Source: a virus
Lineage: Duplodnaviria > Caudoviricetes
Reading direction: 5' to 3' (one strand)
Virus record (IMG/VR): IMGVR_UViG_3300035507_000199
Location: 12,201-76,200 of that record
DNA: 64,000 nt
The notes beneath the pieces are model-generated. The model was not told the DNA's origin. It ran no database searches and worked only from the letters and a program-made list of their open reading frames with translations. The position numbers and the translations under genes were made by a program. This document shows positions 13,360-64,000 of this stretch, piece by piece (position 1 is the stretch's first letter; every line of letters begins with the position of its first letter).

Positions 13360-13363
13360 TTAA

Positions 13364-13714
13364 TCAGTCCTCCCCATTATCATAAATAATATCCACTATT
13401 AGATATGCGTTATTATTTTCTGCAATTAATTTCATTGAATTTGCATCAAAAGAAATTGCACTAATTTCAGTTTGTTCATTTAAGTCTAATTCATAGATTC
13501 CTGTGCTACCTATAATGATAGGGTCAACCCCATCATTAAGGTAGAACTTAGTCCCAGGAAGTGCCTGAATACCTAACTGAAGAACTGGAAAATTATCTCC
13601 AAAAACAGAACCAGAAACAAAACTTGAACGCTCTGCATTTGTAGGCTGATTTGTAGATAGCCCTGTACCTGATGGCTCATTATAGTAACGATATTGTTTT
13701 ACTTTCTTTGCCAT
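13364..13714 (-). CDS. Hypothetical tail-module protein (116 aa)
   Basis: RBS and tight packing; LGIQALPGTKFYLN..IIIGSTGIYEL resembles MMPGSMIFID..IKIGATGSY in the 877-aa protein. Confidence 0.6.
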   Translation of the reverse strand: MAKKVKQYRYYNEPSGTGLSTNQPTNAERSSFVSGSVFGDNFPVLQLGIQALPGTKFYLNDGVDPIIIGSTGIYELDLNEQTEISAISFDANSMKLIAENNNAYLIVDIIYDNGED

Positions 13715-32000: not shown

Positions 32001-35000
32001 GAGCTGCTTCAATTACTTGTTTAGCTTCTTCGACACTGGCTAAATATTGTCCAACACTTTGAGCTTTATTAATTAATTCTCCATCCTCATTAAAATCTAA
32101 ATAAGAAGATTCTATTGAATCTAAAATAGGAGATAAAATATCACTTCCATAATTTTTAGTTTCATAATCAACGGATATAAAATCATCTATTAATAAACCA
32201 TAATCATTAGTTAATTCTTCTTTTTCCTCTTCTGAAGCAGATGTTAATTTATTGGCTAAATCTGATAAAACTTCTTTAACAGTAGATTCTGCATTTAAAT
32301 TATAATTTGTAACATAATTTTTTAATAATTCTACAATTTGTTCTTCATTATCAATAAGAAAACCAGATAATGTTTCATCTGTTACAGATAAATCTTCAAC
32401 GGGAAGATATGATTGAATCCAAAAATTATTATTATAATCAGGATCAAGCGTATCTGATGAATAGCCTAAAGCTTGAAGATTGCCACTTTTAGTATTACCA
32501 TCTTGACTATATGAATATAAAGGAATATCTTTATTATTGGATAAATCTGACTGTGAAATTATTCCAGTTGTTAATTGACCATCTTTCCATTTATTTTCAT
32601 AATTATCTGCTTCGTCTTTTACTAATTGAGCTTCATCTTGAAGCGCATTTTTAGCAGAAGTAGCTGCAGCATTAACTTGTGCTTCACGTTTCTCTTCAAT
32701 AGCTTTTGTTAAAGCTTTATAATTTTCAGTTAAAATTAAAAGTTTTTCATTTTCTAATCCATACTGCTCTAATAATGCTTCAGTAGCACTAGTTAAATCT
32801 TCTTTACTACCTGTTCCATCATTATATGCTTGTAATGCAGTTTTATAATTTGAGTATAATTCTTTTGCAGAATCTGCCTCAGATTGCGCCTCTTCTGCGG
32901 CTTTTTGACTAGCTTCTGCATTTTCTTTTAATTTTTCAGTATTTTTTTCTGTTATACTATTAAGAGCAGAAATAGCTGCTACTGCTCCTAAAATTGCCAC
33001 TGCTAAAACAGCAATAACTGGATGTGTATACCATACAGCTGCATTTGATCCAACAGCTATACTATTTCTTTCTATTGCTGCAGTTTCAGCATCCGTAAAA
33101 TTAGCTTCAGTATTAGTAATTGCGGCTTTCGCAGTTTTAAAAGCAATGCTAGCGCTAATAGCTAAATTATTAGCCTTTTCTGCAGCAATTTGAGTTAAAG
33201 TAGCTCCTGCTTCTTTAACTCTTAAAGCCGTAATAGCTTCATCTAATGTTTTTTGTGCTTCTCTAATTGACTTATATGCTTGAATGGCAGTATTTAATGC
33301 CATAAAACCAGAAACTACTTTTTGAATTCCACTCGTTTCATCATCAAAAAGTTCACTTCCGAAATTAGATATTGTACTTAATGCCATCGCATAAGTCATT
33401 CCTGCTCCCGCAACTTTAACAAAACCTTCAGATAAAGAAGCAGTTTTACCCTGTAAGCCCTCTATTGCTTCACCAGCTGTTTTTGCAGCATTTCTCGAAT
33501 CTGCAAATTTTTGATTTGCATTATATATTTTTGCTCCAAGATTATCTGCAGAACCAACAATATTATCAACTACTTGTTTAGCTTGCTCTGCATCTCCAGT
33601 ACTATCTCTTAAAATTGCTTCAGCTTCATTAAATTTCTCTAAAGCATTTGACCCAACCGTTTCAACAGCCTTGTCTAAGTTTGAAAGACCTTGAGAAACA
33701 TTAGTAACATCTTCACTTTTAATATCCTTTAGTATCTCGTTAATTTCTTCTAGTTTTTCGGTATCTATATTTCCAGTTGATTGAAGAGCTTCATAATAAT
33801 CTGTCACATATTGTTTTGCTTTTTGTAAATCTTCTGGATTATTAATGTCAATATCTCCAAGCCTAGATTGCAACCCTTCTAAAACTTTATATTCATTTTC
33901 TAATTCTTTAGCTTCTTTAATTGTACTTTCAAATTGTTTACTATTTTTATTTTTTGTCTCCTGATCTGTCGTTGTTTGCGACCTTAATATTGATCTTTGA
34001 GCTTGTCTAGTTTGAGATTTTACAATAGCTTCCTGTTCTTCTTTATTTTTAACTAATTGAAGATATTGATCTCCAAGTTCTGAGCTAATATCCATCAAAG
34101 ATTGAACCCTTTTTAAATCATTCTCAGAAACTTCTTTACCTGCGGCTGCTAATTGTTTAGTTTTTTCAATTAATTGATCTTGTAAATCTGCTTGTTGAAT
34201 ATATATATCTGCTGTAGCAGCATTAGAGCCTTTATCAGTATCCATCATCATATCTCTTAAAGCTTGATTTGCTTCTTTTCTCTGGTTTAAAATTTCTTCC
34301 ATACCAGCTTGAGAATTTACTTTAAGATTATAAATCATATTATCAATACCAGTAGAAATATCATCACTAAACATATTTAATAATAGTCCACCAACAGCCG
34401 GAAGAATGCTTGATAAACCGCCAAAAGCATCAATTAAACCATCAATTCCATCAACAATAGAATCTATAACATTCAATACAGCAATAAAAGCATTATCATC
34501 TATTAAGTCTGAATAAATTGCCTCTAATGAAGCTCTTACTCTTTTACTCGCAGCTTCCCAAGATTCCTCATAAATTTCAGCTTGTTCAGTTAAAGTGCCT
34601 TCTGAATCTTGTGCAACTGCTAAGTTTTCTTTCATATAATCCCAGTTATTCATTAATGCCATTAACTGAGTATATTGTCTTGTTCCTGCAACAGCTTGTG
34701 CAACTGCTAATTGAGTATCATTTGATAAAGTTCCCCATTTATCTCCTAACTCATCAAGAACTGTATCCATGTCTTTTAGCTCTCCACTGGCATCTTTAAT
34801 ATCAACACCGACTTTTTCAAGAGCTTGAGAATAAGTTCCTAAATCAGTTCCATCATCAAGAGTTTCTCCTAACTCTAAGTCTTGAATACGAGCAAAAATA
34901 GTTTTAAAAGCATTACCAACAGTATCTGCTGATTCTCTTGTTTTTGCTACTACAGTAGCTAATGCAGATGTTGCATATTCATAACTTAATCCAGCAGTTT

Positions 35001-51228: not shown

Positions 51229-52287
51229 TTAAGCTTTCTTGGCCTTTGTTTTTGAATTTCTACAGCATTTACAAATAGAATAAAAACCATCTTTACTTGT
51301 TTTATTCTTACTAAAATATTTATTATGCGCCAATTTAATCTCGCCGCATCTACTGCATCTTTTATATTTTCCTTTTTCTTGTGTTAAGAAATACCAATCA
51401 AGGGTTTCATCTTCAGCTTGAGATGCTATTAAATTTGGAATTTTCTTTCGCCAAAGAGATGAAATATATTCTAGACTATGCGTAACACCAAATTCATCTT
51501 TGAGTTCCTTTTGGATTTCAACATTTTGTAATCCATCAATCTTACACTCAACGATTTTTCTATACATCGGATATTCTTCAAGGGCTCGCCCAGAGATTGA
51601 ATCAAAATCATCCATGAGATACCATAAATCACTATCATGGTGGCCCCAAGAATCTTCTTTTAGTCTTGAATAATTACATAAAATAGCAGAGCAGACTTTT
51701 GAATCACATAGCGAAACACCTTCTGGAATAATATATCCATCAGCATCAAAAGAAAATGATTCTTCTAATTTTGTCGGCATTTTTGAGCGGACAAACTTTG
51801 TCATCGTTATTGGTTTACGATACGCATTTTTAATAATATATTGGTCTTTGCGCATCTCAATTAAAGCTTTCTTTATAATAAAAGCATCCTTGCCCTCTGC
51901 TCTTTTTAGTTTTGCTTCCCAAATATCTATGGCTTCTTTTAGTTGTCTTAAGGGTTGGATTTCTTCTAAATCTTTTTTAGTTATCTTTACTTTTGGTTGA
52001 AAAATTGTTGTTTTACTTTCGTTTATTAAATTATAAATACCATCTTCGCCATTTTCAAGCTGGGAAACAAGCCCCTCGAATGATGTTTCTCTTTTATTAA
52101 CTGTAGTCATTCGATTTTCCGTAATAATTTTACGTTCTTTCTTTTCTTGTTTCTCCATACAAAGAACTAAGTAGTCGGCAAGAATTTCTAAATATTTATC
52201 ATTTGGTTCTGGATTTTCTTCCAGAATTTGTTTTACCAACTCGTTTCGTTCTACAGGAGTTTCTAATGTATAATCTAACTTTATTAT
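51229..52287 (-). CDS. Putative transcription regulator: sigma-region-4/LuxR-like HTH plus C-terminal Zn finger
   Basis: KIVECKIDGLQNVEIQKEL..YISSLWRK helix-turn-helix pattern; CSRC..CKCC; likely ATA start at 52287 (ORF track uses TTG 52239). Confidence 0.55.
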   Translation of the reverse strand: MIKLDYTLETPVERNELVKQILEENPEPNDKYLEILADYLVLCMEKQEKKERKIITENRMTTVNKRETSFEGLVSQLENGEDGIYNLINESKTTIFQPKVKITKKDLEEIQPLRQLKEAIDIWEAKLKRAEGKDAFIIKKALIEMRKDQYIIKNAYRKPITMTKFVRSKMPTKLEESFSFDADGYIIPEGVSLCDSKVCSAILCNYSRLKEDSWGHHDSDLWYLMDDFDSISGRALEEYPMYRKIVECKIDGLQNVEIQKELKDEFGVTHSLEYISSLWRKKIPNLIASQAEDETLDWYFLTQEKGKYKRCSRCGEIKLAHNKYFSKNKTSKDGFYSICKCCRNSKTKAKKA

Positions 52288-52639: not shown

Positions 52640-53013
52640 TATTAAGTGGAAGTGGAGCCGCAAGAGTAAAATATAGTAGTGATTTTAAAAAAGTCGCTAA
52701 AGAGAAAAATATTGCAAATCCATTTTTTAAAAATTTATTTGGAAAAGAAAAAGAAAACAAAGATGATGGTAAAATTAAAGTTTCAACAGAAGAATATATT
52801 AAAATGAGAGATGAATATATTGCGCGCAGAGTTTTCGAGGAATGGGGCTGGGACAGCATGATGTGGGATATCAAGACTGCGCATAATCACTGTCTTGACT
52901 TCCTCTTGGAAGAGCTTCACCCTTGTGAAGGCTATGGAGGTCAATGTAATTTAAATTGTAGTCTATTTAATAAAAAATGTTGGACATTGAATGAGAAAAA
53001 GGAGAATGGATAA
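52633..53013 (+). CDS. Hypothetical protein with C-terminal Cys cluster (126 aa)
   Basis: GGAGG RBS; C..CxxxCxxxxxxC at C-terminus. Confidence 0.6.
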   Translation: MVVLSGSGAARVKYSSDFKKVAKEKNIANPFFKNLFGKEKENKDDGKIKVSTEEYIKMRDEYIARRVFEEWGWDSMMWDIKTAHNHCLDFLLEELHPCEGYGGQCNLNCSLFNKKCWTLNEKKENG

Positions 53014-53276
53014 TGGTAGTAGTTAAACCGGAAAATGTAGTAAAGAAAATTGATGATTTAGGAAGGATTACAATTCCTAAAAGTTTGCGGGCGCGCATGT
53101 ATATAAATTCAGAAAATAATCAGATGGAATTTTTTACCGCAGAAATTGAAGGAAAGGATTATATTTTGCTGGCGCCTTATGGATCGGTAGATGGAAAATA
53201 TTTGGCAGCCGCAGAAGTTTTAAAAGAGCTTGGCGCAGAAATTCCAACTGAGCTACAGGAGGTTATTGAAGGATAA
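53013..53276 (+). CDS. AbrB/SpoVT-family DNA-binding protein
   Basis: VVKKIDDLGRITIPKSLR is the AbrB swapped-hairpin signature. Confidence 0.8.
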   Translation: MVVVKPENVVKKIDDLGRITIPKSLRARMYINSENNQMEFFTAEIEGKDYILLAPYGSVDGKYLAAAEVLKELGAEIPTELQEVIEG

Positions 53277-53819
53277 ATGAGAGCAATGATAACCGGGCAT
53301 AGACCTGGAAGATTAGCCGGTCATGAATGGTATGTTAGAAATTGGATTGAAGATACTTTGAAGGAGATTAGACCGGAAGAGTTTTTTACTGGAATGGCGC
53401 AAGGAGTAGATCAAATTGCGGCAGAATGTGCAAAGTATAATAAGATTCCTTACACATGCATTTATCCAAGTTGGAGAAAAACTTTCCATGATAAAGAAAT
53501 TAATTTAATGGAGAGTGCTAGGAATGTAATTTTTTTATATCCGCAATATAATGATGGAAAAGACCCTTATGGCTTTAGAGATAAGTGGATGGTTGACCAT
53601 TCAGATGTTTTGATTGCGGTTTGGGATGGCGTTGAAGAAGGCGGAACATATGAAACGATTGAATATGCAAAAGAAAAAGGAATTAAGATTTTTTTGTATC
53701 CGCATTGGGGCCGAGAGATAGAGGATTTAGTATATCAGGATAGGGAACCTAATTTCAAAAATCCTGAAATTGATAAAATTTATTATGTAGATAAAGAAAA
53801 TCCAGAAGAGGGGAAATAG
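53277..53819 (+). CDS. SLOG-superfamily protein (YspA/DUF1273-like)
   Basis: ITGHRP, TGMAQGVD, RDKWMVDHSD.LIAVWDG..GGT. Confidence 0.8.
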   Translation: MRAMITGHRPGRLAGHEWYVRNWIEDTLKEIRPEEFFTGMAQGVDQIAAECAKYNKIPYTCIYPSWRKTFHDKEINLMESARNVIFLYPQYNDGKDPYGFRDKWMVDHSDVLIAVWDGVEEGGTYETIEYAKEKGIKIFLYPHWGREIEDLVYQDREPNFKNPEIDKIYYVDKENPEEGK

Positions 53820-54168
53820 GGTTTTGAAAAAGATAATATCGTAATCTCGTTTCTGAAATCGATTTGGTGGGAATTATGTCCAGAGGAATATCAAATTCAA
53901 AATGAAAAAATTTTTTCTCCCGAAATACACCCCCCATCAAGCATCATTCAGTCTGGTGACTTTTTTTATTTTAAAACTATCTCGGAAAAAATGTCTAAAA
54001 CGTATTGTCGCGTTTTCTGAGAAGCGTGTCGCGCGAGCGCTGCGCACCGGGCCATTGACGCAGGAGATGGACCGAGTTTTCGATTGAAATGATGGCTCAA
54101 TATTTCTCGATCCAAGAGGCTTGCAGGCTTGCTAATCATCAACTTCCTATAATTTGGCAATTAGCGAG

Positions 54169-54228
54169 TGTCAATCGGCAGAATGCACAAACTTCATCAC
54201 GCATCTTTGTGCAATCTGCCAGTAGACA
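54169..54228. promoter_or_regulatory. TGCACAAA-N14-TTTGTGCA inverted site flanked by -35-like hexamers
   Basis: tgtcaa-N9-TGCACAAA-N14-TTTGTGCA-N9-tagaca. Confidence 0.6.
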
Positions 54229-54287
54229 AAGAGCAGTGTGTGCTATAATGTCTATACAAGGTAAAGAAAGAAAGGAGCCGATAGATA

Positions 54288-54548
54288 ATGATGAAGGCGG
54301 TATTGATAGCAGTAGCAATGATGATGGCAGGTAACACAGGACACACTTACACAGTAGATGCTACAGTGTATGAGGTCAATGAGTATGATGGTGTACAGTA
54401 TGTAGGGCTGGAAGATACAGATGGCTATCTCTGGGCAATGGAAGATGTAGACATGAGCATGGGCGATAAGGTAACACTGGTCATGGACAGCATGGGCACA
54501 GAGGACATCACAGATGATGAGATAGTGACATACACAGTGACACACTAA
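54288..54548 (+). CDS. Small acidic protein with N-terminal signal-like segment (86 aa)
   Basis: AAAGGAG RBS; MMKAVLIAVAMMMAG then a beta-rich acidic domain. Confidence 0.65.
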   Translation: MMKAVLIAVAMMMAGNTGHTYTVDATVYEVNEYDGVQYVGLEDTDGYLWAMEDVDMSMGDKVTLVMDSMGTEDITDDEIVTYTVTH

Positions 54549-54559
54549 GCAAGAGCAAA

Positions 54560-54586
54560 AGCTTGCTATCACAATGATAGCAAGCT
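54560..54586 (+). terminator. Intergenic hairpin
   Basis: AGCTTGCTATCA-CAA-TGATAGCAAGCT 12-bp stem. Confidence 0.5.
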
Positions 54587-54603
54587 AAAGAGAGGATAAT
54601 ACA

Positions 54604-54780
54604 ATGAGAATAACACTATTAAAGAGTGATGAATGGGAAAGAGTAATGGATGTAGATTCAGGAGAAGTACTGGTAGAAAACCATGTTGTCTCAGTAGAGG
54701 ACCTTTTGCGAGTGTTAAATAAGAGGGGGATACTATCTGGGGTACAGATTAAAGAGGTTTCAGAAGAAGAATTATTGTAA
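54604..54780 (+). CDS. Hypothetical protein (58 aa, not in ORF track)
   Basis: GAGAGGA RBS; MRITLLKSDEWERV...EVSEEELL*. Confidence 0.65.
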   Translation: MRITLLKSDEWERVMDVDSGEVLVENHVVSVEDLLRVLNKRGILSGVQIKEVSEEELL

Positions 54781-54871
54781 GAATTAAAAGAAAAGTATTG
54801 ACTTTTACCAAAAATTATGATATTATAATAATGTAAGGAAGAAAAGAATAACCAGAAAAGAGGAAAAAGAA

Positions 54872-55084
54872 ATGAGTGAAAAAACAAGGGTTAAAATCAT
54901 CGTTATTATTTGCGTAGTATTAGGAGCTGGTATTGTATGGGGCTATGCAGGGCTGTCTATTAAGTCACTTTTGGTTGGGGGTATTTGCGGATTCGTATTT
55001 AGCGCGGTTTCAATTCATCTTGAATACCTGTTTGATGAATGGATGGAAGCGGCGAAGCTGATTGACCATGAGTGGGAAGAGTAA
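54872..55084 (+). CDS. Small membrane protein (70 aa)
   Basis: Two hydrophobic helices; own promoter and terminator. Confidence 0.65.
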   Translation: MSEKTRVKIIVIICVVLGAGIVWGYAGLSIKSLLVGGICGFVFSAVSIHLEYLFDEWMEAAKLIDHEWEE

Positions 55085-55119
55085 AAAGGGGGCGGAGAAA
55101 AACCGCCCTTTTGTTTTTT
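55084..55119 (+). terminator. Intrinsic terminator
   Basis: GGGCGG-AGAAAAA-CCGCCC followed by T-tract. Confidence 0.7.
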
Positions 55120-55286
55120 CTTGTACGTGCGGTTTTAGGGTCAGCGAAGCGAGATTGTTAAAAATTTAACACAGTGCAACTTGCACAAAAACGTATTGTT
55201 TATTTTGTACAAAATTATTGTTGACAAAGCGCGCAAGCTGTGCTATACTAATACCATCAAGAGAGATAAGAAAGGACATGAAGATA

Positions 55287-55703
55287 ATGAAAAAGATTTA
55301 TAATTATAGAGTTTATGTAAGATTTGAAGGTGAAACAGAATGGAGAAAAACTAGCATGTTTAGGCATCTTCATTACATGGAAGAGGAAGAGGCTATTCAA
55401 AGCAGTTATGAAAGCATTAAAATTACAAGCTTTGAAGATGCTAAGGAAATAGTAGAAAGCAACCTCATTATGAATGCGGAGATGGGCAAGACTTTCTTTA
55501 CAAAGAAACCTGTTCTTAGATTCTCAGTGCTTGACTATTTCGATGGAGTTGTAACCTTTACTGAAAAACAGTTTAAATCATTTGAATACAAGATCGCGTA
55601 TGAAGAAGAAAGTAACCTTAGCATCAAAACAGTTATGGAATTACTCACAGCAGATGAATTTTGTGAGTATCTCAAAGATAAAGGAATCGAAAAAGTTTTT
55701 TAA
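55287..55703 (+). CDS. Hypothetical protein (~138 aa)
   Basis: Start moved to ATG downstream of promoter 55221 and AAAGGA RBS (55278 alternative). Confidence 0.65.
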   Translation: MKKIYNYRVYVRFEGETEWRKTSMFRHLHYMEEEEAIQSSYESIKITSFEDAKEIVESNLIMNAEMGKTFFTKKPVLRFSVLDYFDGVVTFTEKQFKSFEYKIAYEEESNLSIKTVMELLTADEFCEYLKDKGIEKVF

Positions 55704-55786
55704 AAAATTCTCCAAAAGGGGTTGACAAAAGGTCAGCCCCATGGTATAATAATTACATCAGATGAGGAAAGGAAAGGTAAATAAAA

Positions 55787-56023
55787 ATGAAACTTATTAA
55801 ATCAGAAAATAAAATCGTATCACTGGAAAACGTTATTGAGGTAGAAAAGAGAGTATCTGAACACACTCACACTTCTTACGGAAAGAAATACAGCTTGTAT
55901 GACGTTACAATTTTTATCAAATACAATAGCGGTCAGACTGCTAGAATTGATTTCGCTGACCAGAAGGACGCAAAGCAGGGCGAAGAATTATTCGACAGAA
56001 TCTTTTCAATTTTATCAGAATAG
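55787..56023 (+). CDS. Hypothetical protein (78 aa)
   Basis: Own promoter and RBS. Confidence 0.65.
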   Translation: MKLIKSENKIVSLENVIEVEKRVSEHTHTSYGKKYSLYDVTIFIKYNSGQTARIDFADQKDAKQGEELFDRIFSILSE

Positions 56024-56086
56024 GGGTTGACAAACAACCCCTTTCGGGGTATAATAGTTATAATTCCAAGAGAGGAGAATAAAAGA

Positions 56087-56560
56087 ATGGAAGCAATTAT
56101 AATATTTTTTACATGTAGTTTAGTCAATGTAATGTTATCTACAATGAAATCAATCTTAACTGTGCGTGCAGGCAAAAAGACCGCGGCGGCAATCAATGCT
56201 TTATCCTACGGGTTCTATGCAGTTGTAGTAAAGCAATTAGCAAGCCTTGACTTAGGCATCACAGTCACAGTAACAATTTTAACAAACTTAATTGGAGTGT
56301 ATGCATCAATCTGGCTCATGGAAAAATGCAAGAAAGACTGTTTGTGGAAAATTTCAGTTACTTCAAAGGATAAAGGACTAATTCACAAATTAGAACCATT
56401 CTCAGTCAGCTACACTTGCGGTGAAGTAATTTACAAGAATGAAACCTATTACAATATTGACATTTTTAGCAAAACCAGAGAAGAAAGCGCTATTGTAAAA
56501 GATATTTTGCAGAAATACCATGTGAAATACAATGTAACGGAAATCAACAAGAAATTATAA
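56087..56560 (+). CDS. UPF0316/DUF5698-like membrane protein (157 aa)
   Basis: LVNVMLSTMKSILTVR..AAAINALSYGFY..NLIGVY transmembrane domain plus soluble C-terminal domain; start corrected to ATG after GAGGAG. Confidence 0.65.
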   Translation: MEAIIIFFTCSLVNVMLSTMKSILTVRAGKKTAAAINALSYGFYAVVVKQLASLDLGITVTVTILTNLIGVYASIWLMEKCKKDCLWKISVTSKDKGLIHKLEPFSVSYTCGEVIYKNETYYNIDIFSKTREESAIVKDILQKYHVKYNVTEINKKL

Positions 56561-56623
56561 TTTCTTGTTGACAACCTAACATTTTGGTGTTATAATAAAA
56601 GAAAAAAGAAAGAGGTTGGTAAA

Positions 56624-56923
56624 ATGTTAAAAGGTATTGTTATTGGAGCGCTTGCGGTGTATGTGATTGGTTATTTAATGGATGAAGAAGTTTTCTACTT
56701 TCCAGTGCTTGCACTGGTGGATGCAGGAAGGTATTTAGTTCAGACTTTCCTCTTTGTTAGAACTTTTCCCTTCTTAATAAAAAGAAAAATCAATCCTTTT
56801 TCAATGAGAGTAAAGCAACTGCAAGAATTGTCTCTAGATGACCAGAAAAAATTTGTTTCTTTGATTCCTGTGAAATATCAAAAAATTTGTAAATGGAAAT
56901 TTAAAATAGGGGTTGACAACTAA
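56624..56923 (+). CDS. Hypothetical membrane-anchored protein (99 aa)
   Basis: Hydrophobic N-terminus; own promoter. Confidence 0.6.
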   Translation: MLKGIVIGALAVYVIGYLMDEEVFYFPVLALVDAGRYLVQTFLFVRTFPFLIKRKINPFSMRVKQLQELSLDDQKKFVSLIPVKYQKICKWKFKIGVDN

Positions 56924-56969
56924 GTCAATCCCTGCTATAATAAAAGAAAAAAGAAAGGAAATACAAATA

Positions 56970-57227
56970 ATGAACTTAATAAATTTTTTTAAAGCAAAAG
57001 GTTTCTATGATGAGGTTGGAGAGTTAAAACTTTATAATGAAAAATGTCAGACTTTTGGAGAAGCTTTGGAGGAATGGGCAGAGCTTGAACAGTTAAACTA
57101 TGACATTTCGCATGAATGCGTTCTTGAAACTCCAAGGTTTGATGTTGATTGTTATGCATTTAGCTGGATTGATGATGAGGGTTCAGTCAATGTAGAACTT
57201 TTCAAAGTTTATTTAAAAAGATATTGA
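56970..57227 (+). CDS. Hypothetical acidic protein (85 aa)
   Basis: Start corrected to ATG after AAAGGA. Confidence 0.6.
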   Translation: MNLINFFKAKGFYDEVGELKLYNEKCQTFGEALEEWAELEQLNYDISHECVLETPRFDVDCYAFSWIDDEGSVNVELFKVYLKRY

Positions 57228-57284
57228 CAAGCAAATCAGATTCTGTTATAATAATAGTATCAAAAGAAGAAAGGAACTGATAAG

Positions 57285-57437
57285 ATGAAGAAAGTGTATT
57301 GCCCTGTGAATGGTTGGGATTGTCCCTATTGGAAGAAAGATGGAACTTGCGTGATTGATAATCCAATAGAAGAGTGTGATGATTTTGCGGCATTCTGGGA
57401 TGAAGATGAAGAGTACTGGGAGACAGAAGATGATTAA
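57285..57437 (+). CDS. Small Cys4, acidic/Trp-rich protein (50 aa, not in ORF track)
   Basis: Own promoter and RBS; MKKVYCPVNGWDCPYWKKDGTCVIDNPIEECDDFAAFWDEDEEYWETEDD*. Confidence 0.7.
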   Translation: MKKVYCPVNGWDCPYWKKDGTCVIDNPIEECDDFAAFWDEDEEYWETEDD

Positions 57438-57503
57438 AACTAGGGGTTGACAAACTCAACCCCTTCTGTTATAATAGTATCAAAAGAAAGAGAGGTTGAT
57501 ACA

Positions 57504-57749
57504 ATGGTTTCAAGTACAAAGAGACAAGAAAGCGCACTGAAAAGAATTAATTATGAGAAACTGCAATCAGATATTCTTACTTTCCTGTCTTTGAATCCAA
57601 TGAACAGCTACACTGCGAGAGACATTGCTAATGTTTTCTATGGAAGATGTAATGCACAGAAATGCAGTGTAATGTTACACAGGTTAGTACAGACTGGCAA
57701 AGTGCGCAAACTGATGCATAATCAAAGAAGTTACTTTACTGTTCGTTAG
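57504..57749 (+). CDS. Winged-helix DNA-binding protein (81 aa)
   Basis: ILTFL..YTARDIA..AQKCSVMLHRLVQTGKVRK..RSYF. Confidence 0.65.
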   Translation: MVSSTKRQESALKRINYEKLQSDILTFLSLNPMNSYTARDIANVFYGRCNAQKCSVMLHRLVQTGKVRKLMHNQRSYFTVR

Positions 57750-57853
57750 GCTGGGGTATCAAGCCCCAAACCTAACACGTGCAAAACACCTATTGACAAT
57801 TACCAAAAAATATGATATTATAATATTATCAAAAAAGAAAGAGAGTTGATACA

Positions 57854-58042
57854 ATGAAAATAACAATGGAAGAACTCGAAAAGCTGTGTAATTATTTGCG
57901 GGTTGTCAAAGGTGCTACCGAAGTGCAGATGTTTGATATTTTCAGAGATGTGGTTAGATACAAGACAGCTGATGGAAAACTAGTTGGAAGATTCATCACA
58001 TCAGTTTTTCAAGAAATGAAAGAAATAGGGGTTGACATTTAG
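57854..58042 (+). CDS. Hypothetical protein (62 aa)
   Basis: Own promoter and leader. Confidence 0.6.
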   Translation: MKITMEELEKLCNYLRVVKGATEVQMFDIFRDVVRYKTADGKLVGRFITSVFQEMKEIGVDI

Positions 58043-58094
58043 TCGACCCCATGTTATAATAATACTATCAAAAGAAAGAAAGGAATTGATGAAC

Positions 58095-58397
58095 ATGACA
58101 TTCGAGCCAAAGATTAGCGGAACTAAGGTAACAGGATTTGACATTGAACCATTGTTTAATGGACAGGTAGTAACATTGAGAGAGGTTATCGCAATGGATT
58201 TATCACAAGAATCAATGAACTGGATTCTTGACACGCTGAGGTTTTACAAAGGAACTAATCGTGAATGGGTAACTACAATGGACTATGATAGTATTTACAA
58301 ACTGTCAGTCAATGAGAACTATCCAGAGTATGTGGAAGAGTTCAAAAAGCAGTTTGGCGAAAACTGGATGAATCACTACATTAGGTTTGGGCATTAA
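58095..58397 (+). CDS. Hypothetical protein (~100 aa)
   Basis: Start corrected to ATG after AAAGGA (58089 alternative). Confidence 0.6.
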   Translation: MTFEPKISGTKVTGFDIEPLFNGQVVTLREVIAMDLSQESMNWILDTLRFYKGTNREWVTTMDYDSIYKLSVNENYPEYVEEFKKQFGENWMNHYIRFGH

Positions 58398-58485
58398 GCC
58401 CAAACCTAAAACGTAAAAAAGTTATTGACAATTTCTAAAAAATAGGTTATAATAACATTATCAAAAAAGAAAAGAGGTCGATACA

Positions 58486-58899
58486 ATGATTTATTTAGCA
58501 AGTCCATGGTTTAAAAATAATGAAAGAGTAATGTATGTTCAGATTCTCCAGAAGATGCGCGCGCAAGGTTTGGAAGTTTACGCTCCAATAGAACATGAAA
58601 TTGAAAATGCATGGGATTTAGATAATGCAACATGGGGTAGGAAGGTTTTCCAACAGGATGTTGACGCAATCGACAAAGCTGATGAAGTATGGGTTCTCAA
58701 CTTCGGGATGTATTCAGACAGCGGGACAGCATGGGAATGCGGTTATGCTTACGCAAAAGGTAAAACTGTAAGACAGCTTTTGTATGGATTTGGAGATAAA
58801 GAGTATTCTTTGATGATGATAAATGGCTGTGAAGAGACAGACTTCATGTCAAACTACTTGTATGATAGAAATGATGATTTTAACATCAGTCAGAAATAA
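58486..58899 (+). CDS. Nucleoside 2-deoxyribosyltransferase / N-glycosidase family protein
   Basis: IYLASPWF, DVDAIDKAD, DSGTAWECGYAYAKGK. Confidence 0.85.
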   Translation: MIYLASPWFKNNERVMYVQILQKMRAQGLEVYAPIEHEIENAWDLDNATWGRKVFQQDVDAIDKADEVWVLNFGMYSDSGTAWECGYAYAKGKTVRQLLYGFGDKEYSLMMINGCEETDFMSNYLYDRNDDFNISQK

Positions 58900-58974
58900 T
58901 TTTAAAAAAGGGGTTGACAAATGTCAGCCCCTATGATACAATAACATTATCAAAAAGAAAAGGAGTTGCATACA

Positions 58975-59118
58975 ATGACAATCGAAAGAAGCGACGATAA
59001 AAATTATCCATACACAATTAAAGGCGGTTGGGGCGATAAGGTTTACTGTGATTTAGAAGATTTAAAAGAAATCAAAAACCTCATTAACAAGATTCTTAGA
59101 GAGGAGAAGGAAAAATGA
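58975..59118 (+). CDS. Hypothetical protein (47 aa, not in ORF track)
   Basis: Promoter 58914, AAGGAG RBS; MTIERSDDKNYPY...REEKEK*. Confidence 0.6.
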   Translation: MTIERSDDKNYPYTIKGGWGDKVYCDLEDLKEIKNLINKILREEKEK

Positions 59119-59264
59119 GCATTGAACAAATTGAACAAGATAACGGAATTTTCTATGTTTGTGATTGCGAACACGCCATTGAGATTGGAACAATAGATGA
59201 TGTAAAAGACTTAATAGAACTGTTACAGTTCACTGTTAAGAAAGAGGAGGAGCGCAATGTATAG
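59115..59264 (+). CDS. Hypothetical protein (49 aa, not in ORF track)
   Basis: ATGA overlap with the previous gene; MSIEQIEQDNG...EERNV*. Confidence 0.55.
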   Translation: MSIEQIEQDNGIFYVCDCEHAIEIGTIDDVKDLIELLQFTVKKEEERNV

Positions 59265-59505
59265 CAAGGAAGAAATAATAGAAATAAGAGTTCATTTACT
59301 CCAACAGATGGAGAAATACGTAATGAATACAGAGTGCCAAGAAAGTATTGACACTTGGAGAAAATCAGGTATCCCAGAGAATCCAACAGAAGAAGATTTA
59401 TTAGTCTATGCAAAAGAATCTTTAAAATGGTCTCATGTGATTTATTTTTTCGCTGATGCGTGTTTATTTGAACCTGTAAATAGAACAAGAAAAAAGCTTG
59501 ACTAA
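59257..59505 (+). CDS. Hypothetical protein (82 aa)
   Basis: GAGGAGG RBS; translationally coupled. Confidence 0.6.
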   Translation: MYSKEEIIEIRVHLLQQMEKYVMNTECQESIDTWRKSGIPENPTEEDLLVYAKESLKWSHVIYFFADACLFEPVNRTRKKLD

Positions 59506-59633
59506 TAACCAAAAGTGTGGTATTATTAAATTATCAAAAGAGAGGTGTCGGGAGCCAAAAGTACCAGTGTTGTCTTGAACACAAGGCGATGCCGAGGAAA
59601 GGCTCCCAGCTTCCAAAAGAAAGGAGAAAAAAC

Positions 59634-59804
59634 ATGATTGCATTAGTAGTTTTAGCATTAGTGGCGGATTTCTTTATTACTGCGGGCCTGCTTTGGCTTC
59701 TGCTGTTTGTCCTTCAGTTCGCCGGGGTATTCATTACATTCACCTGGAGTCTGGCCTTTGTGGTTTGGGTTGCGGTGATAATTATTAAGTTGATGTTTAA
59801 GTGA
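59634..59804 (+). CDS. Very hydrophobic two-TM peptide (56 aa)
   Basis: Start corrected to ATG after AAAGGAG; preceded by a structured leader. Confidence 0.65.
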   Translation: MIALVVLALVADFFITAGLLWLLLFVLQFAGVFITFTWSLAFVVWVAVIIIKLMFK

Positions 59805-59832
59805 AAGAGCTAAGTAATTAGCTCTTTTTTTT
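59804..59832. terminator. Intrinsic terminator, possibly bidirectional
   Basis: AAAGAGCTAA-GTAA-TTAGCTCTTT plus T-tract. Confidence 0.7.
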
Positions 59833-59880
59833 GTTTCAATTTTGGCCGGCCGCGCACTGTCCTTGCGGCCGGAATTTTCA

Positions 59881-59909
59881 ATTATACCACCACCCCGCAA
59901 TTTTGTCAA
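59881..59909 (-). promoter_or_regulatory. Antisense sigma-A promoter
   Basis: TTGACA-N17(ending TGG)-TATAAT on the minus strand; no credible gene downstream. Confidence 0.7.
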
Positions 59910-60030
59910 TAGACAGATTGCATAAATATTTGGTAGTAAAAATCCTGAAATTTGTGCAATTTTTTTGCTTGACTTCTGGAATGGGCGGTGGTATAATGAT
60001 ATCATCAAATGAAGGAAGAGGAACTTGAAA

Positions 60031-60237
60031 ATGAGATTATTGACAATAGAAGAGTTTGACACCATGAAGATGTATGAATTGCCGAATGGAATTTACAATA
60101 CTATCGAAAGGGAAATGATGAAGACTTTACCAGATGCTATTGTTAAAAAAATCATGTTGAAGTTTTTATCTAAAACAGTTAGAGAATTTTCTTGCAATAG
60201 TTACGTTAACATTATGAATTGTTTTCAACTAATTTAA
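60031..60237 (+). CDS. Hypothetical protein (68 aa)
   Basis: Promoter 59969; GAGGA RBS. Confidence 0.6.
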   Translation: MRLLTIEEFDTMKMYELPNGIYNTIEREMMKTLPDAIVKKIMLKFLSKTVREFSCNSYVNIMNCFQLI

Positions 60238-60305
60238 AAAAAGTATTGACAAATGAACGTAAAGGCGTTATAATAATACTATCAAAAGAAAGAGAGGTAA
60301 ATAAA

Positions 60306-60752
60306 ATGAGATTTGAGGAAATGATGAATGCAAGACAGGTAAAGAGAGAGCACGTTGTTAGAGAATGGTGGAATGAGAATGGCTACAAGGTTATGAGAGT
60401 GGTTCTGTATCCTCTCTATGTCGGATACCGAGTAGTTGAAAAATATAAAGAGAAACAGGGCGAAAAACTTGTATGGTCTGAGGAACAAGCTAAAGAGGTT
60501 CTTGACAGAAACATTCCAAAAATTTGTGAGACTTTTGATTCTAATGGTCTGGAAGTTAATACAAGAATATTCCTCTGGAATAATAAAATGAAAAAATTCA
60601 CAAGAAAAGATAGAAAATGGGTTCATAAATTTAGAAATCAGTTAGTTGATTATCTTATTAACGACTATGAAATTGAAAATAGTGACAAAAAATTTGATGA
60701 TTGTTTCGGCGGTTATCGTGAAGGTTATGTAATTTTTACAGAAAAATTTTAA
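60306..60752 (+). CDS. Hypothetical protein (148 aa)
   Basis: Start corrected; promoter 60246 and GAGAGGT RBS. Confidence 0.65.
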   Translation: MRFEEMMNARQVKREHVVREWWNENGYKVMRVVLYPLYVGYRVVEKYKEKQGEKLVWSEEQAKEVLDRNIPKICETFDSNGLEVNTRIFLWNNKMKKFTRKDRKWVHKFRNQLVDYLINDYEIENSDKKFDDCFGGYREGYVIFTEKF

Positions 60753-60821
60753 AAAAAAAGGTTGACAAGTTCAATCCCTTCTGTTATAATAAATGTATCA
60801 AATGAAAGAGAGGTAAACAGA

Positions 60822-61025
60822 ATGTATTACGGATTAGTCAAAATTACTGGGGATTCAAATAATTATTTTATTAAATCAAAATATCCAATTCGGAATAAAC
60901 AGCAGATGCTTAATAAAATGGCGCTTAAGTATGATAAATGGAATAAAGAAGATTTTGTAATGCGTCCATGCACTTTTGCAGAATATTATTTGGGAATTTT
61001 ACTTGACAAAATTGTAAATAAATAA
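60822..61025 (+). CDS. Hypothetical protein (67 aa)
   Basis: Start corrected; promoter 60762. Confidence 0.6.
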   Translation: MYYGLVKITGDSNNYFIKSKYPIRNKQQMLNKMALKYDKWNKEDFVMRPCTFAEYYLGILLDKIVNK

Positions 61026-61095
61026 AAAAAAGTGTTGACAAACCGCACGTTCAGTGCTATAATAACATTATCAAATGAAAGAGAGGAAATCAAAA

Positions 61096-61551
61096 ATGAC
61101 AAAACAGACAATGATTAAAAATTATAGAAAGTTCAGTGCGGCAGATGCTTACATCTTAGGTTTTATTTACAAACACTTCGTTTACATGATTCAGGTTGAT
61201 GAAATCATGCCGAGGTTCATGCGAGTAGAACATGAATCCAGTAAAAAAGGTGGCGCTGAAAAATTACAGTTCAGGCTTCCGCAGAAATACCAAGAACAGC
61301 TTATTAAAAAAGGTGCTACGTGTTTAGGTTCAGAAGAAATTTTAAATGGCAGATACAACAAAGGCGTTGAGTTTGAAAGAATCATTTCTGAATTAAACGG
61401 GCAGGAATTTAGAGGTAAGGACAATGTTCCATTCTACGTTGAAGGTGACTTGAACATCAATGGGAAAGAAGTACAGGTAAAATTCAATGGTGCACAGATT
61501 GTTTGTGTAAGAACCTTGAAAAAATTACAGAAAATGCAGAAAACCGCTTGA
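61096..61551 (+). CDS. Hypothetical protein, possible PD-(D/E)XK-like fold (151 aa)
   Basis: NKGVEFERII..GDLNINGKEVQVK resembles an E..D..QxK nuclease motif; start corrected. Confidence 0.5.
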   Translation: MTKQTMIKNYRKFSAADAYILGFIYKHFVYMIQVDEIMPRFMRVEHESSKKGGAEKLQFRLPQKYQEQLIKKGATCLGSEEILNGRYNKGVEFERIISELNGQEFRGKDNVPFYVEGDLNINGKEVQVKFNGAQIVCVRTLKKLQKMQKTA

Positions 61552-61602
61552 CAAGCGGTTCTGCATCTGCTATAATTAGTATCAGAAAGAGAGGTAAATG
61601 AA

Positions 61603-61722
61603 ATGTCAATCTTGTACACAACTAAGGAAGCTTTTGAGAAGGCAGAAAAGTATTTAAAAGAAAATCAGTTCTTGTATGTGGTAGAAAAGGACGCTAATGG
61701 CTACAAAATAATTTTAAAATAG
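61603..61722 (+). CDS. Hypothetical peptide (39 aa, not in ORF track)
   Basis: Promoter 61548, GAGAGGT RBS; MSILYTTKEAFEKAEKYL...KIILK*. Confidence 0.55.
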   Translation: MSILYTTKEAFEKAEKYLKENQFLYVVEKDANGYKIILK

Positions 61723-61802
61723 TTAAAAGAAAATACTTGACAATTACCAAAAAATAGGTTATAATAATATTATCAAAAGAAAGAAAGAAAGAGGTAGATA
61801 AA

Positions 61803-62243
61803 ATGACAAGAACAATTTATTTCGACATGGACGGAACAATCGCAAACTTCTATGGAGTAGAGGGATGGCTGGAAGATTTAATGAACTCGAACACAAGACC
61901 TTATGAAATTGCAAAACCGCTTTTAAACTTTTCAAGTTTCGCAAGACAGCTTCACAGATTGCAGAACAGCGGTTACAGAATCGGAATTGTATCGTGGCTT
62001 TCCAAGAGTGGCTCACCAGAGTTCAATGCAGAAGTTACCGCAACAAAGCTGAAATGGCTTGCTAAACATCTTCCGAGCGTTGAATGGGATGAAATCAAAA
62101 TTGTTACTTATGGAACACCAAAAAGTTCGGTAGTATCTGACAGAACAGGTTTCCTGTTCGATGATGAAGAAAGAAATAGAACAGAATGGGGCGCAAATGC
62201 TTTCGATGTTCAGAACATCATGGAAATTCTCAGAAGCTTCTGA
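61803..62243 (+). CDS. HAD-superfamily phosphatase (5'(3')-deoxyribonucleotidase-like)
   Basis: IYFDMDGT motif I, IVSW motif II, K motif III, LFDD motif IV. Confidence 0.85.
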   Translation: MTRTIYFDMDGTIANFYGVEGWLEDLMNSNTRPYEIAKPLLNFSSFARQLHRLQNSGYRIGIVSWLSKSGSPEFNAEVTATKLKWLAKHLPSVEWDEIKIVTYGTPKSSVVSDRTGFLFDDEERNRTEWGANAFDVQNIMEILRSF

Positions 62244-62309
62244 GAATTTCCCCTTGACAAGGGGCGCCAACAGTGGTATAATAAAGAAAAAAGAAAAGAG
62301 GTTGATACA

Positions 62310-62519
62310 ATGAAAAGAATTTACGTTTGGGATAGCGATGGAGACATTGGAGCGTACGCAACAAAAGAGTTAGCAATGCAAGCCTTTGAAACCTATTATT
62401 TAAACTATCGGTTTAAAGAGAGCGAGGAAAAAGAAAAAGAAGAAGCGCGCCAACAGATGGAAGAAGAAGGCTATTACTACGATGAGCAGATTTATCCAGT
62501 GAATTTTTACGAGGATTGA
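62310..62519 (+). CDS. Hypothetical acidic protein (69 aa)
   Basis: Own promoter and leader. Confidence 0.6.
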   Translation: MKRIYVWDSDGDIGAYATKELAMQAFETYYLNYRFKESEEKEKEEARQQMEEEGYYYDEQIYPVNFYED

Positions 62520-62533
62520 AAGGGGGCAAACAA

Positions 62534-62737
62534 ATGTTCTGGGTTTTGCGGTTTGTGGATAGTGTTGATGATCATTATTTTCTGGAATGGGATAATGCAG
62601 TAAAATACTTTCGGGAGAATATTCTTCTGGGAGTAGATAGAAAAACAAGACTGGAAGCATTAGACAATATAGAAAAGTATGGCGAGTGGCAAGGCTGGTC
62701 TATTTATCTTGATGAATTTGAGGATGGTGAGAAGTAA
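62534..62737 (+). CDS. Hypothetical acidic protein (67 aa)
   Basis: Start corrected to ATG after AAAGGGGG. Confidence 0.6.
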   Translation: MFWVLRFVDSVDDHYFLEWDNAVKYFRENILLGVDRKTRLEALDNIEKYGEWQGWSIYLDEFEDGEK

Positions 62738-62859
62738 AAAGTCAAGAGTCAAGTTGCACAAACTTGACTCTAAATTTTTGTTTAAATTACCTATTGACAA
62801 ATTCCAAAAGATGATGTAAAATGGCGCGCCGGCCACGCACCTGGGCCGGCGAAATTTCC

Positions 62860-62888
62860 ATTATACCACACGGCTCAGCTTTTGTCAA
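62860..62888 (-). promoter_or_regulatory. Antisense sigma-A promoter
   Basis: TTGACA-N17(ending TGG)-TATAAT on the minus strand; homologous to 59881-59909. Confidence 0.7.
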
Positions 62889-63168
62889 GCGAAAAGTTGC
62901 ACAAATTTTCTCGCTTAAATTCTCCCGAAATTGGGCACTTTGCTATTGGACCTGTGTCAACTGGCAATCTGCACAAACTTTTTCTGTTATCTTTGTGCAG
63001 ATTGCCTATTGCGCTTTTGATCAAGATGGCTTATAATAGGTTTATCAGTTGAGGGGAACAGAAGTCAAGAGCAAACAAAAAAAAAATAAAAATAAATAAA
63101 AAAAATGCTTGACAAGCTTCCTACTCCATGATATAATAAATACATAAAGAACAGAGAGGTAAAAAGAA

Positions 63169-63867
63169 ATGGAGCAGAAAAAAATCGACAGAAGAATTAG
63201 TTACAAGGTAGTTTTAGATTGTGAGAGTTGTCCGCTTGACAAAACTCTGGAAGGTGTACTTCCTAGCAACATGTTTTCCTATGATGTGGGTTGGGCGGTA
63301 GTTGATAAAAGGGGCTTTGTGTATGTAGTGAGAAGCTTTGTTGTTGATGAAATTTTCAACAAAGAAAAAGAGTTGATGCAGTCAAGCTATTATGCAAAAA
63401 AAATTCCGATGTATAAAAAGGAAATTGCAGAGGGCAAAAGAATTGTTGCAAGTTTCTATGAAATCAGAAAACAGCTTGCGGATGACATGAAACTCTATGA
63501 AGTTAAAGAAGTCTATGCGCACAACATGCGTTTTGACTATGGAACTTTAAACAATACACAAAGATGGTTGACAAAATCAAAATATCGGTTTTTCTTTCCT
63601 TATGGAACTGAAATTTGCGATACTTTGAAAATGTCAAGACAGGTTATTGGAAAAATGCCAACTTATCAGAAATTTTGTGAAGAAAATGGTTATTTAACCA
63701 AAAATGGCAGACTTCGGTTTACCGCTGAAATCCTTTACAGATTTATTTCAAAAAACAATGAATTTTCTGAAAACCACACTGGTTTAGAAGATGTTTTAAT
63801 TGAAAAAGAAATTCTTGCATACTGTTTTAAACAGCACAAGAAAATGGTTCGGAAGTTGTGGGCTTAA
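63169..63867 (+). CDS. DEDDh 3'-5' exonuclease (DnaQ-like)
   Basis: VVLDCES (ExoI), AHNMRFD (ExoII), HTGLED (ExoIII). Confidence 0.85.
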   Translation: MEQKKIDRRISYKVVLDCESCPLDKTLEGVLPSNMFSYDVGWAVVDKRGFVYVVRSFVVDEIFNKEKELMQSSYYAKKIPMYKKEIAEGKRIVASFYEIRKQLADDMKLYEVKEVYAHNMRFDYGTLNNTQRWLTKSKYRFFFPYGTEICDTLKMSRQVIGKMPTYQKFCEENGYLTKNGRLRFTAEILYRFISKNNEFSENHTGLEDVLIEKEILAYCFKQHKKMVRKLWA

Positions 63868-63879
63868 ACAAGCCCACAA
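63856..63879 (+). terminator. Hairpin overlapping the exonuclease stop codon
   Basis: TTGTGGGCTT-AAAC-AAGCCCACAA. Confidence 0.55.
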
Positions 63880-64000
63880 GGACGGCAAAAAAAATAAAAA
63901 AAAAGCTTGACAAACAAGTCAACCTGTGGTATCATTAAAGAGTAGCAAGGGAAGGAAAGTCAAGAGCGAAATAAAAAAAAGAAAAAAAAATAAAAAAAAA

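Follow-up and report, generated by a model that had tools for sequence, protein, structure and literature searches.

A repeated antisense promoter-hairpin unit between early genes of large gut phages: candidate genes for short antisense RNAs

Background

Short antisense RNAs with a promoter and a terminator of their own, such as oop of phage lambda and sar of phage P22, are transcribed from intergenic promoters pointing against the flow of early transcription; they are about 70 to 120 nt long, contain no open reading frame (ORF) and end at a terminator, and the sar promoter faces another promoter. Both are single-copy and overlap the coding or ribosome-binding region of a defined target. Phages P2 and 186 possess two promoters placed face to face, tens of bp apart, only one of which is usable at a time, and each of these switch promoters drives genes, lytic versus lysogenic. 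In phages of the T4 type, published accounts describe PeSLs (promoter-early stem-loops), which combine a strong sigma-70-like promoter with a stem-loop between small early ORFs, which terminate transcription, promote it, and mediate shuffling, and for which an insulating role between modules is proposed (PMC2839356, PMC4122927); the stem-loop is described as lying just upstream of a promoter that runs with the genes (PMC4122927). In Firmicutes, 5'-terminal stem-loops preceded by fewer than about 2 to 3 unpaired nt, which are expected to block RppH and 5'-exonuclease, are reviewed as heading protein-coding messages (PMC3997798). Here we describe a stretch of 64,000 nt (the window), positions 12,201 to 76,200 of IMG/VR virus record IMGVR_UViG_3300035507_000199 (Caudoviricetes), in which two homologous units, each consisting of a strong promoter directed against the surrounding genes and a G+C hairpin at the predicted start of its transcript, lie between small early genes. 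The units belong to a large, previously undescribed family of repeated elements, widespread among large Clostridia phages of gut and rumen. With a confidence a little short of even, we read them as genes for short 5'-protected antisense RNAs acting locally as boundary or interference devices that help to separate and time early blocks.

Anatomy of the two units

The backward promoter of unit 1 (59881..59909, minus strand) comprises a -35 box TTGACA (59909-59904), a 17-nt spacer and a TG-extended -10 box TATAAT (59886-59881); that of unit 2 (62860..62888, minus strand) has the same boxes, TTGACA at 62888-62883 and TATAAT after TG at 62865-62860, likewise 17 nt apart. Both score 12 of 12 in the promoter scan, and they are the only two on the minus strand among the 17 sites with this score in 53000-64000. 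A G+C hairpin begins 7 to 10 nt past each backward -10 box, at 59846..59872 in unit 1 (minus strand, 8-bp stem CCGGCCGC/GCGGCCGG, 11-nt loop) and at 62827..62851 in unit 2 (minus strand, 8-bp stem CGCCGGCC/GGCCGGCG, 9-nt loop). Transcription is predicted to start 1 to 4 nt ahead of the stem, near 59874-59876 and 62853-62856, respectively. Neither backward promoter is followed by an ATG with a ribosome-binding site, and neither unit contains an ORF. The word GGCCGG occurs 7 times in the window versus 1.64 expected, a count reached in 0 of 100 shuffles, and five of the seven occurrences lie inside the two hairpins. A covariance model built from relatives (see below) recovers both units with filters off, unit 1 at 59823-59913(-) with 80.8 bits (E=1.6e-16) and unit 2 at 62803-62892(-) with 60.3 bits (E=4.3e-12). 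A first-pass annotation made from the sequence of the window had proposed two homologous units at these places, each with a perfect minus-strand extended -10 promoter, an 8-bp all-G+C stem and no ORF, and in these respects it is borne out.

On the gene strand, the order of elements at such a border is the preceding terminator, an optional facing promoter, the hairpin, the backward promoter, the operator repeat, and the forward promoter with the next genes. At unit 1, the terminator hairpin of the preceding gene (59803..59828) ends gene 59634-59804, is terminator-like on the plus strand, and is the predicted 3' end of the unit-1 RNA; an operator-like inverted repeat (59919..59958) lies between the divergent promoters, and the forward promoter (59969..59997, plus strand, TTGACT-17-TATAAT with TG, 11/12) drives gene 60031-60237. 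At unit 2, a bidirectional terminator (62745..62771), with TGCACAAA in its loop, follows gene 62534-62737 and is the predicted 3' end of the unit-2 RNA. Next comes a facing promoter (62794..62822, plus strand, TTGACA-17-TAAAAT), whose -10 box read backwards forms a short U-run after the hairpin. This head-on promoter, also noticed in the first-pass annotation, scores 11/12 and is a conserved feature, 50 of the 133 distinct units having a facing -10 box. Beyond the backward promoter, an operator region (62898..62999) holds TGCACAAA at 62898-62905 and an inverted repeat at 62970-62977/62992-62999, which lies just upstream of a weaker forward promoter (63009-63037, plus strand, TTGCGC-17-TATAAT) found by eye. 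The window has three canonical plus-strand terminators (55086, 59803, 62745), each followed by an operator-type region and a forward promoter, and units occupy two of these three borders.

The face-to-face arrangement at unit 2 recalls that of P2 and 186. It differs in that the backward promoter of a unit drives only a hairpin and is repeated many times.

Occurrence in related phages

IMG/VR contigs, many of which are 100-200 kb in length, were scanned with a pattern derived from the two units; of 63 matches, 29 showed the full arrangement, and a second pattern added more. A covariance model made from 41 units was run on whole records. Covariance-model searching of 100 loci gave 123 matches in 62 of them, and 133 distinct hairpins are known in all. 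Related gut phages of 100-200 kb carry 3 to 8 copies per genome, 1-3 kb apart. A complete 175.6-kb near-twin of the window phage (G001) has 3 strong and 2 weak copies within about 8 kb; a phage of 197.6 kb (G003) has 6 strong copies, a fragment (G002) has 4 strong and 3 weak ones, and a further record (G004) has one. The best matches of each record are all on one strand and grouped in one region of 8-13 kb. In G003, seven perfect backward promoters lie within 18 kb, six of the seven are followed by a model match, and the small genes run the opposite way; wherever gene direction was checked, the units are antisense to small early genes. Since the ends of G001 overlap and its first kilobases continue the window, further copies lie about 1.2-3.4 kb past the window end.

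Named phages hold few traces of the family. A blastn search of GenBank phages with unit 1 gave no match, a relative's unit gave only a weak match, in the gut phage phAss-1, and the 3.8-kb region matched only in short promoter-like stretches. With the covariance model, three weaker units were detected in the small-gene region of phAss-1 (OQ749652.1), at 11066-11149, 12711-12809 and 14914-15000. One of them overlaps the start of a coding sequence annotated as 'hypothetical protein' (locus 12699-13643) in this TAG-recoded phage, and that coding sequence may be a doubtful call. The phAss-1 group is described as long-tailed phages with a predicted Clostridia host, and a word search of the main text of that description finds no mention of promoters, hairpins or terminators (PMC10607447). 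A scan of genome bins gave 79 stretches versus a handful expected by chance (a rough estimate); the promoter-to-hairpin pair is present in 67 of the 79 by script, and 52 of the 79 bin titles, counted by eye, are of the class Clostridia, which suggests and does not prove the host range, since bins can contain phage contigs.

Searches for described RNA families were negative. With Rfam 15, no family matched anywhere in the window at gathering thresholds, and permissive settings over 59700-63050 gave 7 weak matches, all far below the gathering score and none over either G+C hairpin. Among the papers listed in searches on convergent promoters, stem-loops and early regions of phages, and on phage non-coding RNA with early promoters, no description of the element was found.

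A third, degenerate copy had been suspected at 54048-54174 in the first-pass annotation. The model gave only 4.9 bits to the G+C island at 54048-54074 (E=4.4, filters off) and nothing to a full unit, and the candidate -10 box there, TATAGG, lies about 70 nt from the island rather than 7-8 nt. This G+C-rich island (54030-54075) belongs to an extended piece of non-coding DNA (53820-54287), and downstream of it lie an operator pair and a degenerate backward -35 box (54169-54174); it may be the relic of a decayed unit, a view that the model does not support.

Structure and strand of the hairpin

Stems differ even between copies of one genome, for example CCGGCCG, UCGCGCGCC, CGGCCCGC and CUGGCCGC among others, and are 7-11 bp long and nearly pure G+C. 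In a first, narrow alignment, variation was limited to the inner stem pairs. In the alignment of 123 matches, all 8 stem pairs covary, with changes on both sides; 89.5% of cells pair versus 66.4% in shuffles (0 of 500 reach the observed value), and controls in which partners were slid gave at most 49%. Conservation of the hairpin in relatives, which had been named beforehand as a check on the repeated family, is therefore found together with compensatory changes. The loop word CGCAC that the first-pass annotation had picked out in both units is not kept across the family, in which CGU is commoner. Loops are 6-15 nt long, with modes of 9 and 11, and have a G+C content of 0.64 versus about 0.32 for the genome; read on the RNA strand, they contain CG in 113 of 133 and CGT (CGU) in 69 of 133, versus 19 of 133 for the reverse word TGC.

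Three features differ between the strands. G·U pairs outnumber A·C pairs on the backward-promoter strand, 28 versus 6 (8 versus 4 in a smaller de-duplicated set). On the same strand the loops have more G (0.37) than C (0.27), the early region's G>C skew being on the other strand. The distance from -10 box to stem is bimodal: of 258 promoter-hairpin pairs, 122 have the 7-8 nt typical of the backward promoter and 118 the 2-4 nt typical of the facing one, so that only the backward transcript should bear the whole hairpin at its 5' end and the facing transcript should start inside the first arm. The wobble-pair bias, the loop composition and the spacing all point to the backward-promoter strand as the one that matters.

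An equal strand bias would be shown by a non-template DNA strand, and RNA is for this reason favoured, not proven. The same expectation holds for a replication signal in which the strong promoters prime or open an origin, or in which the extruded non-template hairpin is itself the priming signal. Such a signal would be in keeping with strong promoters, convergent or divergent, that surround a G+C element prone to form structure, with repeated protein-binding sites close by. However, 3-8 copies per genome at intervals of 1-3 kb are unlike origins, an RNA hairpin would hinder a stable RNA-DNA hybrid, and linkage of the units to a replication gene is not seen in the window; we consider a role in replication very improbable.

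Some of the same features would suit RNAs acting in trans, as abundant and stable 5'-triphosphate G+C hairpins. The protein that they bind or saturate could come from the host or the phage and be, for instance, an enzyme of RNA decay, a defence factor that senses RNA, or an RNA chaperone. Decoys, antitoxin mimics and primers, put forward in the first-pass annotation, are conjectural roles of this kind. A full-consensus promoter, a hairpin at the 5' terminus, several isoforms per genome, non-random loops and the wobble-pair bias agree with this. Against it, stems and loops vary between copies, so that there is no single sequence-specific target; the remainder of the RNA is dictated by the adjacent terminator or promoter; and to the absence of an Rfam match is added that, over 129 units, the loops are not significantly more complementary to the 5' region of the divergent gene than expected from other units (own mean -9.30 kcal/mol, other units' -9.03; Wilcoxon p=0.25). 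A trans-acting RNA is accordingly judged rather unlikely. Its more specific form, that the units are anti-host RNA genes whose 3-8 hairpin isoforms flood the cell at the onset of infection, the G-rich CG loops saturating or blocking a host RNA-decay or RNA-sensing defence factor, seems to us somewhat less likely again.

Some other candidates were also set aside. A solitary CRISPR-repeat mimic, or RNA anti-CRISPR, does not agree with copies that differ within a genome in both stems and loops. A likeness of the unit 1 tail (…ATTGAAAC) to a CRISPR handle was dropped because the tail is absent from other units. Hairpin promoters for an N4-type virion RNA polymerase were also dismissed, because the giant ORF of the window encodes a tape measure protein and the hairpins are flanked by full host-type promoters; this judgement covers 76 kb of a genome of about 176 kb.

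Predicted transcripts

Unit 1 would give a product of about 75 nt, and unit 2 one of about 120 nt. The unit 1 RNA (minus strand, 59876-59798) folds with -27.9 kcal/mol (z -4.7) into the 5' G+C hairpin, an A-rich linker and a 3' hairpin that is the preceding terminator read backwards. The unit 2 RNA (minus strand, 62855-62733) folds with -35.7 kcal/mol (z -3.2) and comprises the 5' hairpin, the facing promoter region and the bidirectional terminator (62771-62745). The hairpin of unit 1 is no intrinsic terminator: on the RNA strand CCAAAA comes after it, and on the gene strand AATTTTC. That of unit 2 is followed by CGCC and then, four nt past the stem, by AUUUUAC, the facing -10 box backwards; it is a weak terminator and was listed as such by the scan. 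Hairpins and terminators in the family were scored with simple scripts. In the 83 of 133 units lacking a facing -10 box, an A-run occurs within 14 nt after the hairpin in 50 and TTTT in 6, and of the 50 units that have one, 20 show TTTT within 10 nt. Terminator-like sites are enriched downstream, 65 of 133 units having one within 160 nt versus 19 of 123 control stretches on the same strand, and the median predicted length is 109 nt. The hairpin itself is thus not a terminator in general, and the usual end would be the bidirectional terminator of the neighbour.

Overlap of the unit 1 RNA with gene 59634-59804 would be confined to the terminator and, at most, a few final nt of the gene; that of the unit 2 RNA would take in the terminator after 62534-62737 and the first 25 or so nt of the facing transcript. 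No complementarity to the coding region or ribosome-binding site of a target, of the oop and sar type, was found for either unit. As predicted, the RNAs would share with oop and sar their size, the absence of an ORF, the intergenic antisense promoter and the terminator end, but differ in having 3-8 paralogous copies, in the 5' G+C hairpin, and in overlapping mainly an upstream terminator or a facing 5' end.

Sampled words of the sequence occur in five gut metatranscriptome runs, which contain 5-14% of them. In four runs, unstranded assembled contigs of relatives that are 90-99% alike cover several early genes, with DNA carry-over possible. One contig of 507 nt (X4, record 29) spans 59385-59887, passing through hairpin 1 into the -10 box, and gives no strand, start or end; among the contig pieces listed, none spans unit 2.

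Operator-like sites

The TGCACAAA-type word occurs 11 times in the window versus 3.79 expected and is found 9 nt upstream of the backward -35 box in both units. The first-pass annotation had placed an operator with an N24 spacer beside each unit. This is so at unit 1, where TGCATAAA (59919-59926) and TTTGTGCA (59951-59958) are separated by N24; at unit 2 the word is present at its 9-nt distance, and the partner about 25 nt from 62898-62905 is degenerate. The layout of unit 1 is also found in relatives, where all three promoters have the operator word 8-10 nt ahead of their -35 box. Of 133 units, 36 carry TGTGCA exactly within 24 nt upstream, and 68 carry a looser form.

Within the window, TGCACAAA/TTTGTGCA sites are located at 54184-54213, 55182-55213, 59919-59958, 62755-62762, 62898-62905 and 62970-62999. 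They are arranged as inverted repeats with a gap of 14 or 24 nt and precede the -35 box of a subset of promoters by 8-10 nt; one site is in a terminator loop. The first early operon includes 53013-53276, whose 87-aa product has a below-threshold match to a MazE/AbrB-type fold (E=0.0011); as a lead only, this product is a candidate for the regulator that binds the operator.

Variants and mosaicism

In recurrent variants of the element (L128 4439-4523; L126 2204-2293 and 11449-11513; L127 2489-2556 and 6473-6539), the backward -10 box is missing, the backward -35 box is fused directly to the hairpin, on the gene strand the hairpin and the T-run after it form a terminator, and the facing start is inside the stem. 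Judged by their layout, such variants would make it possible to stop upstream transcription and restart from the embedded promoter without a backward RNA.

Compared with G001, the window shows several cassette-sized indels or replacements, most breakpoints of which are at ordinary forward promoter or ribosome-binding site cassettes. G001 lacks gene 62534-62737, which adjoins the unit 2 terminator, and a further difference is an insertion of about 50 nt in the unit-1 operator. At 61103-61586, gene 61096-61551 is swapped for unrelated DNA in the near-identical G001, the flanks being 94-98% identical. The differences at 61103-61586 and 62534-62737 amount to clean modular mosaicism.

These observations bear on an explanation by which the unit is a PeSL-like cassette for regulation and recombination that acts mainly as a signal in the DNA or on the gene strand, the backward RNA being a by-product. 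The hairpin would insulate early modules on the gene strand, and the block of promoter, hairpin and operator would be a homology patch for shuffling. The -10-less variants agree with it, in that a T-run together with a facing start inside the stem means that read-through stops and new transcripts do not; so do the indels near the units, and known PeSLs of similar composition are reported to terminate, promote and shuffle (PMC2839356, PMC4122927). Units and PeSLs also have in common a repeated strong host-type promoter with a G+C stem-loop, set in a plastic genome region among small early ORFs without an assigned function. However, the promoter of a unit runs counter to the genes and its hairpin comes 0-3 nt after the start, 7-8 nt past the -10 box, so that a feature defining a PeSL is lacking, and PeSLs occur in T4-like myoviruses whereas the units are in a siphophage of the Clostridia type. 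The common forms have no T-run on the gene strand, and with TTTT on the RNA strand in only 6 of 83 they are not plain terminators; a full consensus and a fixed offset of 7-8 nt would be unneeded in a by-product; stems differing within a genome leave only short homology; and most indel breakpoints are not at units. We regard the PeSL-like explanation as unlikely, yet worth keeping in view.

The ordinary forward promoters of the window are closer to PeSLs than the units are. At 55714-55750, 56027-56055, 57442-57475, 58024-58060, 58906-58942, 61540-61576 and 62246-62282, a G+C stem-loop, often GGGG...CCCC, encloses or abuts the -35 box, a fusion of terminator and promoter that resembles T4-type PeSLs, here in a Firmicute-type siphophage.

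Genome context

The window is the last 64 kb of a linear phage contig of 76.2 kb without terminal repeat, and the record (76 kb) represents about 39% of a genome of about 176 kb by completeness estimate. Its G+C content is about 0.32, and the G>C skew moves to the plus strand at 52 kb. Large minus-strand genes, including those for the portal and a sigma factor, fill 1-52239, and from 52.3 kb to the window end there is a run of small plus-strand genes, most with a consensus promoter of their own. The nearest named records of the portal are from phAss-1 (40%) and from large siphophages of Enterococcus, Lactococcus and Bacillus. The ORF at 26083-35880 (minus strand) encodes the tape measure protein (Pfam PhageMin_Tail), whose 3265 aa would imply a very long tail. 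Three early genes encode nucleotide-handling proteins: 58486-58899 specifies a nucleoside 2-deoxyribosyltransferase (Pfam, E=2.7e-19), 61803-62243 a 5'-3' deoxyribonucleotidase (PHROG, E=1.5e-12) and 53277-53819 a SLOG/YpsA-like protein (PHROG, E=2.4e-17; under the Pfam cut-off), and these hint at a remodelling of the host nucleotide pool.

The phage sigma factor gene (51232-52239, minus strand) heads the minus-strand block at the point where it diverges from the early block. The backward promoters point at this late block, which starts at 52239, and the hairpin is at the very start of the transcript. Both facts would suit an antitermination signal, i.e., a nascent hairpin that, with or without a phage protein, lets the polymerase ignore terminators, so that a backward sweep silences the early block and enters the minus-strand sigma-factor and structural genes. 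However, bidirectional terminators are enriched just downstream of the hairpins, suggesting that the RNA is meant to be short, the hairpin sequences are too varied for one protein site, and a long antisense RNA is unsupported. This explanation also has, in our estimate, very little chance of being correct.

Proposed role

Short antisense RNAs working locally at the borders of early blocks would account for the arrangement as follows. Each unit would be a small non-coding antisense gene marking the border between two early transcription units. Host polymerase would bind the backward promoter, which has the full consensus of the host sigma-A type and points away from the forward promoter, flanked by the operator, that serves the next transcription unit, and the RNA would begin 1-4 nt before the very stable 8-bp G+C stem and end at the bidirectional terminator of the neighbour, the transcript of unit 2 first crossing the facing forward promoter. 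The 5' hairpin would guard the RNA against decay that depends on the 5' end. According to a review, RppH of B. subtilis requires at least 2 unpaired 5' nucleotides (PMC3997798), and a start 1-4 nt before the stem would leave few unpaired nucleotides, or no more than this minimum. The hairpins would in this respect resemble the stabilising stem-loops of Firmicutes, with the difference that they head a non-coding transcript.

A polymerase bound at the backward promoter, or firing from it, would oppose read-through from upstream as well as the facing promoter where present; the predicted starts of unit 2 are about 25 nt apart, so that two polymerases could not sit there at once. The RNA would have complementarity with the terminator region at the 3' end of the upstream message and, for unit 2, also with the 5' end of the facing transcript, and a protein binding the TGCACAAA sites would set the balance among the promoters. 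As an account of the anatomy, an insulator working by transcriptional interference, the alternative offered in the first-pass annotation, is at least as good as a small RNA acting in trans.

Several points weigh against this reading. The backward -10 box has been lost at 22 of 98 distinct sites (viral loci), where the hairpin and the facing promoter are kept, and these -10-less copies mean that the hairpin can be retained without a backward RNA. A simple rule finds no recognisable terminator within 160 nt in 68 of 133 units. The excess of G·U pairs comes mostly from the outermost pair, without which the counts are 12 versus 6. The pairing figures lean toward the proposed structure, because the alignment was fitted to the model structure and the sequences are related, and for the latter reason the family counts are not independent. 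Finally, the interfering role is deduced from geometry, and the transcription, strand and ends of the unit RNAs are predictions from sequence.

Conclusions

If the reading of the units as local boundary devices is true, they would provide a compact natural means to separate and time early transcription units, and may offer a candidate insulator part for synthetic biology in Firmicutes. With its covariation support, the cassette can now be put forward as a family of RNAs or regulatory motifs. Its recognition would explain conserved 'empty' intergenic DNA, would argue against spurious ORF calls across units, and would help to understand how these uncultured phages take over their hosts.

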